Below, in pieces: positions 10,468-60,868 of a stretch of 64,000 nucleotides of DNA. A program made the translations under genes and the position numbers. Under the pieces are notes generated by a model. The model searched no databases. It saw nothing but the letters and a program-made list of their open reading frames with translations, and was not told where the DNA came from. The stretch comes from a virus (Duplodnaviria > Caudoviricetes), in the IMG/VR virus record IMGVR_UViG_3300020050_009513, positions 1 through 64,000 of that record, one strand, 5' to 3'. Position 1 is the first letter of the stretch; each line of letters starts with the position of its first letter.

Positions 10468-10763
10468 TCGATACTCCTTACGTTTTTAATCTTGATTGTG
10501 TTCTCGTTAATTAACGATTGAAACATTTCCATATCTATAAAAGCATGTCGCCCGCCAGCAGGGATATTAAAAAATTCTTTACAACTCTTAGTTACTATTG
10601 GCAAGGCAGCCTTATCTCCAGGATAGTACATAAGCATACCGTCTTGCATTACTGCTAAGTGTACCCATTGATTCATCTTAACTACATACTTAGGATTGTA
10701 TTTGTTAAGCTGATTGACTATAAACAAATTAACTTTTGTTCCTTGGGTATGAACTAATTTCAT
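10464..10763 (-). CDS. hypothetical protein
   Basis: ORF track; ATGA overlap. Confidence 0.6.
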   Translation of the reverse strand: MKLVHTQGTKVNLFIVNQLNKYNPKYVVKMNQWVHLAVMQDGMLMYYPGDKAALPIVTKSCKEFFNIPAGGRHAFIDMEMFQSLINENTIKIKNVRSIE

Positions 10764-11137
10764 TCAAGCATCCTAGTATTACGGGGTTGATGAAGTTTAA
10801 ATGTTCTAAGTAGCACAAGCCTCCCTTTCTTAATACGCTTATAAACGTTTTGCATATTCTGCCGACCGACAGGGTTAGCTGTGACAAACATAATTTCCTT
10901 AGGTGTATGCTGAGGATGCGCCTCAAGGAAATACATTACATCTAATCCTGTTTTCTCCACACCGTTATTGTCATACGAAGCAAGGTCGTGATCTAACAAA
11001 AGAATGTCAAAGGGCTGATTATTAATTAAAAGTTCAAGCCCTTCTGTATAACTCCAACCCTGAACTGTTACGTCTATGTTATAAGTGTTCTTAATCAAAG
11101 CAGGAGTCCTATTGTCATCAATAAGTAACACTCTCAT
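10760..11137 (-). CDS. stand-alone receiver-like protein (cyclic-phosphate-processing receiver type)
   Basis: RVLLIDDNRTP, DILLLDHDL, TGLDVMYFL, TANPVGRQNM; start reassigned to ATG 11137 after AAGGAG. Confidence 0.75.
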   Translation of the reverse strand: MRVLLIDDNRTPALIKNTYNIDVTVQGWSYTEGLELLINNQPFDILLLDHDLASYDNNGVEKTGLDVMYFLEAHPQHTPKEIMFVTANPVGRQNMQNVYKRIKKGRLVLLRTFKLHQPRNTRMLE

Positions 11138-11487
11138 ACACTTACTCCTTGACAAAACACTGCATAACATATATAGTTAAGAGAAACCCTTGCCTGTAAT
11201 AGTTCGGCCCATATCAAGGCAGCCCTGGGGTACAGAAGGTAGAGAGAAAAGGAATCCTACCTAACAGACGCCAACGTAGGTCTGTTCAGCCTTCTGTAAC
11301 GTGCATTAGGTCTATGTTAAACCTAACCATTATTAAGTTTCGCCACCACTTAGGGTATACTACTCTAATGGCAGTTTATTTAGAAACACGAGATAGGCGT
11401 TCAAACAAACTATACAACTGTATAACTTGTATTACAAACGTGTGATAGATACCGTTACTAATACATATATTTAAACATTACGCTGTA

Positions 11488-11962: not shown

Positions 11963-11991
11963 GTCGTTTTCCTTTCTGGAAAAGCGAGGGT

Positions 11992-12201
11992 CTATCCCAC
12001 CTTAACAGTAACTTCATAGTCCTGAAAACCCACAGACAGGTCTGGCACGGTATTTGCAGAGGTCTTTCTGTCATGTTCAGCAAGCATGTCCTGAAAGTCC
12101 TGAAATAGCATGTGCAGTTCCAAGTCATACACAGGTTGCTGGTCCAGTTGATTCTGTGCTTCACGGATGGCGGCGTGCATACCCTTTACTGCGCTATTCA
12201 T
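11992..12201 (-). CDS. hypothetical protein
   Basis: ORF track; GGAGGG RBS. Confidence 0.65.
   Translation of the reverse strand: MNSAVKGMHAAIREAQNQLDQQPVYDLELHMLFQDFQDMLAEHDRKTSANTVPDLSVGFQDYEVTVKVG
12042..12058 (+). promoter_or_regulatory. sigma54-type -24/-12 consensus site, antisense to early genes
   Basis: CTGGCACG-GTAT-TTGCA. Confidence 0.45.
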
Positions 12202-12292
12202 TTGTCCCTCCTAGGACTAGTACAAGCATTAAGTACGTGAGTACACCTGTGGTTACCCCACATATGGCTACAATAACGATCTGTTCAAACAT
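12194..12292 (-). CDS. small membrane peptide (32 aa)
   Basis: Manual translation MFEQIVIVAICGVTTGVLTYLMLVLVLGGTNE. Confidence 0.55.
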   Translation of the reverse strand: MFEQIVIVAICGVTTGVLTYLMLVLVLGGTNE

Positions 12293-12492
12293 TATACACC
12301 CCTTCTAGTGTACACGATGGCCACGGGTCCAAATTCAAACCACGCGGTGAACGTGCTTCTGTGAAAATACCACGGCTGCCAGAAGTTAACAATACCCACT
12401 GCAAGCCATACAGTCCTGATCTGTACCCCAAGTACAGGTAGACCATAGGCGTTGCGGCTAAGTGTAAACATAGCGCACCCCTTTTCCCTCAT
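12292..12492 (-). CDS. small hydrophobic/aromatic protein (start probably MFTLSR)
   Basis: ORF track. Confidence 0.5.
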   Translation of the reverse strand: MREKGCAMFTLSRNAYGLPVLGVQIRTVWLAVGIVNFWQPWYFHRSTFTAWFEFGPVAIVYTRRGV

Positions 12493-12615
12493 GTATCAAG
12501 ATGAGTCACCGGCCCAATCGTGGAGGGGAGACACGAAGGGCCAGGACATATGCGTGCCTTGACCGTGCTGTTCTTACCCTTCGGTTAAGAAGGGATTCTG
12601 CTACGGATTTAGGCT

Positions 12616-12676
12616 GGACTCATCAGCCAACGCATCACGTTGGGACAGGTACGTTCTGTGCATACCTGTTTCGTCC
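12616..12676 (-). ncRNA. hammerhead ribozyme, type II
   Basis: Minus strand: GGAC GAAA C AGGUA-loop-UACCU G UC CCAACG-UGAUG-CGUUGG CUGAUGA GUCC. Full core and three perfect stems; predicted cleavage between 12644 and 12643. Confidence 0.92.
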
Positions 12677-12681
12677 TGAGA

Positions 12682-12879
12682 CTATCGTGCCAAGAACTGT
12701 GCCCTAGTCATAAGCTGGGACGGATGCAGGGTCTCGCTATAGCCTGCACCTTGCCGCTTGACGTGTAGCATACCCAAGCCAGTACGGTAAAGCAAGCGAT
12801 AAATCTCAAACCGCATACCACTACGGGTATTAACCATGCGATAATACTTCACAAATCCTCCTCTGTTAAGCTCCAGCAA
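12682..12879 (-). CDS. small basic hypothetical protein (start probably VKYYRM or MVNTRS)
   Basis: ORF track; GGAGG upstream of internal start. Confidence 0.55.
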   Translation of the reverse strand: MLELNRGGFVKYYRMVNTRSGMRFEIYRLLYRTGLGMLHVKRQGAGYSETLHPSQLMTRAQFLAR

Positions 12880-12914
12880 AGGCCCGAGGTGTTACGCTCA
12901 GGCCCTCAGGGAAC

Positions 12915-13271
12915 TTAGCCGACCTTGCGGTTAAGAAACTCAGCGATCTGTTCACCAGTGATTCCAGCACGTTGCAGGGCTTCCAGTGCGGCAGTAGCTT
13001 TCTGGCGTTCCTTTTCGAGAAGCTTAGCGGCTTGCCGTTGGGCTTTCTCCAGGTCCTTCTGCTTGCTACGGTTACCTTGACGCTCTTGGGCTACCTCGAT
13101 GCCTTTCAGCAACTCTTCTGCGCTGTTGACAATCAGCTTCGCTACGTCTACGCTGAACATAGCCGTGTGTCCAGTAACGGGGTCAGTGATCTTCATGTAC
13201 CCCTTCTCGCTTACGCTTACAGGTCCGTTGGTGTAGTCCCAGTTAGCCTTGGGTTTCATCTGCTCGCTCAT
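12915..13271 (-). CDS. hypothetical protein with long charged helix; first gene of the putative early operon
   Basis: ORF track; GAGGGAG RBS; downstream of sigma54-type site. Confidence 0.75.
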   Translation of the reverse strand: MSEQMKPKANWDYTNGPVSVSEKGYMKITDPVTGHTAMFSVDVAKLIVNSAEELLKGIEVAQERQGNRSKQKDLEKAQRQAAKLLEKERQKATAALEALQRAGITGEQIAEFLNRKVG

Positions 13272-13347
13272 ACTCTCTCCCTCGTTAGCGCCTACGGTGT
13301 AGGCTTGGTTTGTTCGACCGGAAAACCCGACCGATGCAAACCACTAG

Positions 13348-13364
13348 AGCAACCGCCGTGCCAA
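13348..13364 (-). promoter_or_regulatory. sigma54-type promoter (-24/-12)
   Basis: Minus strand TTGGCACG-GCGG-TTGCT in non-coding DNA about 77 nt upstream of ATG 13271. Confidence 0.65.
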
Positions 13365-13539
13365 GTGCTAAGTGGTTGAAATCATTCGGTTCTCGTTTTG
13401 GGATTGTGTCGATCTTCTCGACAAAACGACCGTTGACCGATCGATCAAGTCGGCGAAATCACTCGGGTTTGTTGCAAAAGTGTCTAATCGTCAAAAAGTT
13501 TGTCGATCAAAATGAGACGGCGTCCGACAATCGCGCCTG

Positions 13540-13624
13540 CGTGCGTGTGCGCGTGTGCGGGCATGCGTGTGTACGTGCGTGTGCGCGTGTGCGGGCATGC
13601 GTGTGTACGTGCGTGTGCGCGTGT
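13540..13624. repeat. 2.5 tandem copies of a 34-bp alternating purine/pyrimidine repeat
   Basis: CGTGCGTGTGCGCGTGTGCGGGCATGCGTGTGTA at 13540-13573 and 13574-13607, partial copy to 13624. Confidence 0.95.
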
Positions 13625-13768
13625 AGGCGGGTAGGGGGGTAGGGGTTATTTTTTGTAAGAAAGCGGTTAACACTCACCGAGTACACATAAGTGTATTTTT
13701 AGACTTAATAACCTCCTAGGTCACCGGAATAGGATAGCTTCCGCCCTTCCAAGCATTATGCTCAGGTT

Positions 13769-14020
13769 TTATAAGAGACATGAGGACATAGGCCCGTCCA
13801 TTATTGAACGTATCATATCAACAGGCATATACATATGCAGTAATGAGTCGTAAGTCTGACTAATGTGCAATTGTCGGGCAGCATAGGGCACCAGCCTCTT
13901 TCCGTTTCGAATATACACGGTAAGCGTAGGAGACATAGTCCCACCTCGCGTATATTGCTCAATGTCAAGCTTTTCCTTAACTCCATTGACTAGAACGGGA
14001 ATTTTATAGTATTGTTTCAT
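13769..14020 (-). CDS. hypothetical protein, paralog of 14031-14243
   Basis: Start reassigned to MKQYYKIPV; shares KIPVxVN...DIE...RG...IRNGKRL. Confidence 0.65.
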   Translation of the reverse strand: MKQYYKIPVLVNGVKEKLDIEQYTRGGTMSPTLTVYIRNGKRLVPYAARQLHISQTYDSLLHMYMPVDMIRSIMDGPMSSCLL

Positions 14021-60839: not shown

Positions 60840-60868
60840 ACTATAGCAAGAACTGTGCCAGAAGTCAA
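60840..60868 (-). promoter_or_regulatory. sigma70 promoter TTGACT-N17-TATAGT whose spacer holds a sigma54 consensus
   Basis: GTTGACTTCTGGCACAGTTCTTGCTATAGT; predicted +1 at ATG 60833. Confidence 0.7.

Follow-up and report, generated by a model that had tools for sequence, protein, structure and literature searches.

Type II hammerhead ribozymes are common in bacteria and prophages, where they often flank genes, and they were proposed to process long phage transcripts (PMC3088659). The genes that they flank are not constant (PMC3088659). A pseudoknot between loop I and the tail is found in the majority of type II hammerheads and was needed for fast cleavage where this was tested; many hammerheads do without this contact, which is therefore typical and not obligatory (PMC3088659). 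In Desulfovibrio vulgaris, in vivo cleavage has been documented for three type II hammerheads that lie close to phage-like genes (PMC8782182).

The element described here was found in the genome of an uncultivated phage, whose virus record is about 91% complete and contains portal and tail genes. It lies on the minus strand of the window, which is the whole stretch of 64,000 nucleotides that was analysed, at positions 12616..12676. Compared with the Rfam family of type II hammerheads, RF02276 (PMC3088659), it has the same catalytic core, the same GUC cleavage triplet, an open stem II and loops on stems I and III, and it is likewise intergenic, on the coding strand and among small phage genes. 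Its 3' tail, CAGCCUAAA, also resembles the Rfam consensus GcAGCCaAAg. Unlike the Rfam consensus, in which stem II has 2 bp, the window's copy has a stem II of 4 bp, and its 6-bp stem I with a 5-nt loop cannot form the loop I-tail pseudoknot. Reading by eye, no pseudoknot of at least 4 bp was found between loop UGAUG and the 3' tail; the best pairing had 3 bp (GAU/AUC).

The predicted arrangement can also be compared with RiboJ, in which a self-cleaving hammerhead placed before a cistron generates a 5'-OH and a terminal hairpin, uncoupling the cistron from upstream sequence. RiboJ is an engineered insulator derived from a plant satellite RNA, and the analogy is one of mechanism; RiboJ is not a relative of the phage element.

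Anatomy of the ribozyme and predicted cleavage site

The first-pass annotation had proposed a complete type II hammerhead with all core nucleotides and three perfect stems. Sequence reading, a descriptor, the covariance model R1 described below and RF02276, the last below its gathering score, all pointed to this element on the minus strand; loops close its stems I and III, and its stem II is open. Read from 12676 to 12616, the RNA is GGAC-GAAA-CAGGUAUG(CACAGAA)CGUACCUG-UC-CCAACG(UGAUG)CGUUGG-CUGAUGA-GUCC, and the order of its elements (II5'-GAAA-III hairpin-UC-I hairpin-CUGAUGA-II3') is the type II circular permutation. Stem II is made of GGAC (12676-12673) and GUCC (12619-12616), flanked by A residues at 12677 and 12615. 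The 5' strand of stem II is followed by G12 A13 A14 (GAA, 12672-12670) and by stem III, which has 9 bp including A15.1-U16.1 (12669-12661 / 12653-12645) and the loop CACAGAA. C17 (12644) separates stem III from stem I, CCAACG / CGUUGG (12643-12638 / 12632-12627), with the loop UGAUG, and the core CUGAUGA occupies 12626-12620.

Every conserved core position of the hammerhead was present, namely C3 U4 G5 A6 N7 G8 A9, G12 A13 A14, A15.1-U16.1 (A12669-U12645) and a C as H17. The core-adjacent pairs C1.1-G2.1, G10.1-C11.1 and A15.1-U16.1 were all standard, and the three stems contained no mismatch (6 bp and a possible U.G in stem I, 4 bp in stem II, 9 bp in stem III). Stem III had been given as CAGGUA/UACCUG; these pairs exist, and the stem is longer than that, since a U.G and a G-C pair extend it. 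The minimum-energy fold of the isolated 61-mer was the exact three-stem hammerhead, at -22.2 kcal/mol.

Hammerhead cleavage leaves a 2',3'-cyclic phosphate on the C17 side and a 5'-OH on the C1.1 side. The GUC triplet at 12646-12644 places the predicted scissile bond at 12643..12644; the cyclic phosphate would stay on C17 (12644) and the new 5'-OH end would be C1.1 (12643), in agreement with the position proposed earlier for the 5'-OH base.

The type II descriptor matched only once in the whole 76,596-bp genome, both strands included, and this match was the window's ribozyme. In dinucleotide-preserving shuffles of the genome (n = 300), a relaxed version of the descriptor gave 0.037 matches per shuffled genome, and the strict version (stem I of at least 6 bp, stem II of at least 4, stem III of at least 7) gave none. 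Descriptors detected no type I or type III hammerhead in the genome, and R1 gave no match in its last 12.7 kb; by descriptors and R1, the element is thus the sole hammerhead of any topology in this genome. Judged from its sequence, it is very probably a genuine hammerhead that is competent for cleavage.

A phage subclass with a 4-bp stem II

Scanning IMG/VR with the pattern CGAAAC..GTC..CTGATGAGNCC returned at least 120 stretches, many of them with multiple copies. We extracted 199 distinct type II hammerheads from the matches listed, and 159 of these 199 had a stem II of exactly 4 bp. Among the matches listed, members with a 4-bp stem II shared several features that were not forced by the pattern: an A directly 5' of stem II (155/158), an A directly 3' of it (113/158), a GGNC/GNCC stem II, which was GGAC/GUCC in 48 of 158, and a G-C-closed stem I of 6 bp with a loop U-N-A-N-G. 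All these marks are found in the window's ribozyme, which has A12677, A12615, GGAC/GUCC and a loop UGAUG that fits U-N-A-N-G; its stem II reads A-GGNC...GNCC-A and its 6-bp stem I carries the G-closed loop of the subclass. Its string CGUGAUGCG is identical in three of the IMG/VR loci (L100, L035 and L084). The same exact stem II form also occurs in prophage-like DNA of Acidobacteriota, Actinomycetota, Myxococcota, Bdellovibrionota, Bacteroidota, Patescibacteria, Proteobacteria and others.

Placement relative to genes was a further shared property. A stop triplet was present within 10 nt upstream in 177 of 198 family members among the matches listed, against a chance frequency of about 38% by our own arithmetic, and the first Shine-Dalgarno-plus-start followed at a median of 15.5 nt downstream among the same matches. 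The window's copy likewise follows its upstream stop codon by less than 10 nt. It differs from the subclass in four respects. It is present as a single copy, whereas many subclass contigs have 2-12, including multi-copy arrays (for example L028 and L021). Its stem III has 9 bp and a 7-nt loop, whereas the commonest stem III of the subclass has 6 bp. It is followed by a start codon only after 124-145 nt, compared with a subclass median of about 15 nt. Finally, its tail CAGCC pairs with GGCUG, whereas the family tail AUCAG pairs with CUGAU, the register being shifted.

Model R1 was built from an alignment (A1) of 104 IMG/VR hammerheads, from which the window's copy was left out and in which the stems were written by hand. 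Pairing reached 99.9% on A1 and was not used as evidence, because the sequences had been chosen by a pairing descriptor and the argument would be circular. R1 recognised the window's ribozyme over the full length of the model (1-66; span 12679-12608) with 63.0 bits and E = 4.8e-19, and this was the only match at E <=10 in the 64 kb searched on both strands (128 kb in total). The score lies within the range of the family: full-length R1 matches in comparator contigs scored 55.9-70.5 bits, several of them being training rows.

The outcome was different with the Rfam model. A cmscan comparison with the type II hammerhead had been proposed as a check; RF02276 aligned end to end with the element in a 111-nt search, with 26.6 bits and E = 6e-4, and the score stayed below the gathering score of 37. 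At gathering thresholds, no Rfam family was matched over the whole window, and in the remainder of the genome beyond the window no family was matched at E <=1. Five comparator contigs (L037, L049, L073, L084 and L100) contain many hammerheads of the same build by descriptor and model, 11 of them in the three contigs also searched with R1. On these five contigs only 2 copies were reported by RF02276; they scored 31.0 and 27.3 bits, and no copy attained 37. Because the comparators also fall below the cut-off, the low RF02276 score reflects a limit of the model's seed and not a defect of the window's copy. At its curated threshold, RF02276 misses the abundant phage subclass with a 4-bp stem II, and routine annotation therefore undercounts these ribozymes. 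The window's ribozyme, as assigned from its sequence marks, belongs to this very common subclass of phage hammerheads; it is a sound but ordinary member, and current knowledge of hammerheads is unaffected by it.

Genomic setting and proposed role in transcript processing

The ribozyme and all flanking ORFs are on one strand. The first ORF encodes 118 aa (12915..13271, minus strand), and homologues of its product, at 90% and 50% identity, were found in Logan assemblies only, on contigs of 41,111 and 2,129 nt. It is followed by a 56-aa ORF (12682..12852, minus strand) with a GTG start and a GAGGAGG Shine-Dalgarno sequence. The TAG stop codon of this ORF (12684-12682) is 5 nt ahead of stem II, in keeping with the placement of the hammerhead family. 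Downstream of the ribozyme are a hydrophobic 59-aa ORF (12292..12471, minus strand), for which an alternative ATG at 12492 would give 66 aa, a transmembrane-like 32-aa ORF (12292-12194) and a 69-aa ORF (12201-11992). The element had been described as lying on the coding strand between two ORFs, and it indeed sits between ORF 12852-12682 and ORF 12471-12292.

The spacer from the ribozyme to the next convincing start codon (12471 or 12492) measures 124-145 nt and contains the two hairpins that had been noticed in the first-pass annotation. One is CCCUUC-UUAACC-GAAGGG (12577..12594, minus strand). The other, described as GGCCC/GGGCC at 12542-12511, extends to 12545-12509 as a long hairpin with an outer stem CUGGCCC/GGGCCGG and an inner stem UCGUG/CACGA. 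Neither hairpin is followed by a U-tract, and no terminator-like site was seen between the ribozyme and the flanking ORFs. The family layout, in which a stop codon, a ribozyme and a ribosome site follow each other, does not fully apply here, since the next gene is 124-145 nt away and not about 15 nt. A 17-codon ORF (12496-12549, minus strand) with a weak AAGG site 7 nt upstream is located in the spacer and overlaps the long hairpin; it is a candidate only.

Searches with the flanking genes returned little. The flanking proteins had no Pfam or PHROG identity. The 118-aa protein, or its alignment, had no relatives in IMG/VR, JGI metagenomes or GTDB genomes; two larger nearby proteins had none in IMG/VR, and an antisense 68-aa ORF that overlaps the ribozyme gave no match when searched. 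INPHARED returned no DNA or protein match, and cultured phages, searched by BLAST with the 72-nt motif, gave chance-level fragments only. The nearest cultured relative of the genome, a Silvanigrella phage whose portal is 28% identical, gave no match with R1. No flanking gene was shared with other hammerhead loci, in agreement with the finding that the genes flanked by type II hammerheads are not constant (PMC3088659).

The five small ORFs and the ribozyme form a stretch of about 1.8 kb (~11990-13770) with 51% GC, compared with 41.7% for the genome. GC3 was 0.51-0.61 for the 118-, 56-, 59- and 69-aa ORFs and 0.39 for the 32-aa ORF, against 0.35-0.45 in the neighbours. The contrast in GC and GC3 makes this cassette (118 aa - 56 aa - ribozyme - 59 aa - 32 aa - 69 aa) look imported. 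A search for flanking repeats that could mark a mobile element around it revealed nothing convincing.

In the reading that we favour, the element is probably catalytically active, belongs to the type II hammerhead subclass that is common in phages and prophages, and would cut a leftward multi-gene RNA between cistrons. The ribozyme would be transcribed within this RNA, fold once the 3' strand of stem II has emerged, and cut itself after C17 (12644). Owing to the type II topology, the upstream product would end in the stem III hairpin and the downstream product would begin on the stem I hairpin. The upstream product, with the 118-aa and 56-aa ORFs, is thus predicted to end in a 9-bp hairpin bearing the 2',3'-cyclic phosphate, and the downstream product, with the spacer and the 59-, 32- and 69-aa ORFs, to start with a 5'-OH placed immediately at the stem I hairpin. 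The two halves would be held together by the 4-bp stem II only and should separate, after which each may decay and be translated independently. Cutting between cistrons at this site would match the processing role proposed for type II hammerheads (PMC3088659). For this role itself, intercistronic processing with hairpin-capped products, we put the chances somewhat above even.

Cleavage in vivo, and an effect of it on RNA stability or expression, are what we infer from this arrangement. The first-pass annotation had gone on to suggest that the downstream membrane-peptide segment is protected from decay; from the anatomy of the predicted product, stabilisation of this segment by the 5'-OH and the structured leader is a reasonable inference. 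The locus adds one clean hammerhead to an uncultivated phage lineage. As a single copy between two short gene blocks, it would offer a convenient minimal system for studying intercistronic effects on stability and translation.

Alternative pairings and competing readings

When the flanks were included, nearest-neighbour folding gave a minimum that lacked the 4-bp stem II and favoured either an upstream competitor or an alternative hairpin between GGCUG (12628-12624) and CAGCC (12616-12612; hairpin 12612..12628, minus strand). This alternative hairpin would mask core positions C3-G5 and take the last base of stem II. The fold in which the hammerhead was enforced lay 0.9-2.4 kcal/mol above the minimum. 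The upstream competitor involves GUUCU (12697-12693), at the end of the 56-aa ORF, which can pair with AGGAC (12677-12673); in minimum-energy folds this pairing forms at the expense of stem II. The competitor would be displaced by a ribosome that translates or terminates at GUUCU, but the same ribosome would also cover the 5' strand of stem II.

Tails that can mask the core were also found in other phage hammerheads. Among the matches listed, about one fifth of the phage type II hammerheads have a 3' tail AUCAG or GUCAG that is complementary to core bases 3-7, and the hairpin formed by such a tail excludes the active fold. Because tails of this kind are common across the family, a tail-swap control was uninformative, and we used upstream flanks and a covariation test at position 7 as the control. 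Among the matches listed (IMG/VR loci L001-L138), NTCAG was present in 42/198 family tails versus 2/198 upstream flanks. Its first base tracked core position 7 in these matches: with U7 it was A in 29 cases and G in 1, and with C7 it was G in 6 and A in 1. The enrichment in tails and the covariation with position 7 indicated that the core-masking tail is real in part of the family.

A second possible pairing was seen when the 3' product of cleavage was folded. The sequence GACUCAUC (12500..12507, minus strand), just upstream of the start region of the next gene, is an exact 8-nt complement of GAUGAGUC (12623-12616), which comprises core and stem II bases, and the two pair in this fold. Shuffling gave p = 0.012-0.031 for the 8-nt anti-core, a value obtained post hoc. 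A long-range anti-core was also considered as a family trait and rejected: matches of at least 6 nt were found downstream in 9% and upstream in 8%, without enrichment. The status of GACUCAUC is therefore uncertain, the anti-core not being a feature of the family.

These pairings raise the question of whether the element is a regulated or bistable switch rather than a constitutive cutter. The CAGCC tail would mask the core before cleavage, the freed core would pair with GACUCAUC afterwards and remodel the leader by the start region of the 59-aa ORF, and cleavage would thereby set downstream translation. The small energy difference between the alternative hairpin and the hammerhead fold is in line with such a switch, as are the covarying NTCAG tails of the family and the pairing of the anti-core in the cleaved-product fold. 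The window's tail, however, pairs in another register than the family AUCAG, the family showed the same frequency of anti-core matches on both sides to within one percentage point, the anti-core p-value is post hoc, and the Shine-Dalgarno sequence AAGGGG of the 12471 start is free in both folds. We regard a switch as rather unlikely. A more specific form of it, in which cleavage acts irreversibly on the downstream membrane-peptide genes because the released GAUGAGUC pairs 110 nt downstream (12507-12500) and the 150-nt leader closes into one domain, appears improbable to us; if true, the ribozyme would control the timing of downstream translation in addition to its occurrence.

Constitutive cutting between cistrons remains the reading that we prefer, and three other accounts of the same element were weighed against it. 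The ribozyme could be a passenger on a horizontally acquired cassette, which may still cut and has no role tuned to this phage. The raised GC of the 1.8-kb stretch and the raised GC3 of four of its five ORFs fit this account, and so do the status of the element as the sole hammerhead of the genome, the abundance of the subclass both in prophages from many phyla and in phage contigs with a higher GC content, and flanking genes unrelated to those beside other hammerheads. Both the core of the motif and its 19 stem pairs (21 once the U.G and G-C extension of stem III is counted) are free of mismatches, and such a flawless motif argues for ongoing selection or a very recent arrival. A passenger origin is also compatible with a processing function, and we consider an origin of this kind without a tuned role unlikely. 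It is quite improbable that the ribozyme makes the 5' end of a free-acting structured RNA that runs from 12643 to ~12500 (some 130-150 nt, with the two hairpins) and does not process mRNA: the spacer that precedes the next gene is of unusual length and rich in hairpins, but its folding z-score is only -1.8, it has no Rfam match, no look-alike in the phage collection and no visible 3'-end signal, and part of it is occupied by the 17-codon ORF with its weak ribosome site. Finally, the RF02276 score below the gathering threshold and the missing loop I-tail pseudoknot could point to a match that arose by chance or has decayed and is unable to cleave. The subclass comparators also fail the Rfam cut-off, the independent model R1 gave 63 bits (E = 5e-19), the strict descriptor had no match in 300 shuffled genomes, and none of the subclass-specific features outside the core is missing, so we give this last account hardly any credence.

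Three further observations were made in the surroundings of the cassette. A 136-aa protein encoded at 10760-11170 on the minus strand matched PF20274 (cREC_REC) with 54 bits, the cut-off being 27. The cRec domain was predicted by Aravind's group to open 2',3'-cyclic phosphates (PMC7824862, PMC9503650). The cRec gene lies 1.45 kb downstream of the ribozyme, which would make a 2',3'-cyclic phosphate end. A link between the two was considered and rejected: cRec was absent from five hammerhead-rich viral records and the gene is outside the GC-rich cassette, so that their proximity was treated as a coincidence, which it probably is.

Upstream of the cassette is a gap of 500 bp that contains no ORF. 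A 34-bp unit of alternating purines and pyrimidines is repeated there in 2.5 perfect copies (13540-13645), followed by G-runs. Boxes of the sigma-54 type (TGGCAC-N5-TTGC) occurred as three exact copies, at 13349-13363 (minus strand), 12043-12057 (plus strand) and 60846-60860 (minus strand), the first of which (13363-13349) is 78 nt upstream of the 118-aa ORF. The first-pass annotation had placed the ribozyme inside the earliest transcript, which would presuppose a putative genome end around 13.5-13.7 kb and a putative promoter; of this proposal, the box at 13363-13349 is the part that could be seen in the sequence. When one mismatch or fewer was allowed, 9 such sites were counted, compared with 3.2 expected.
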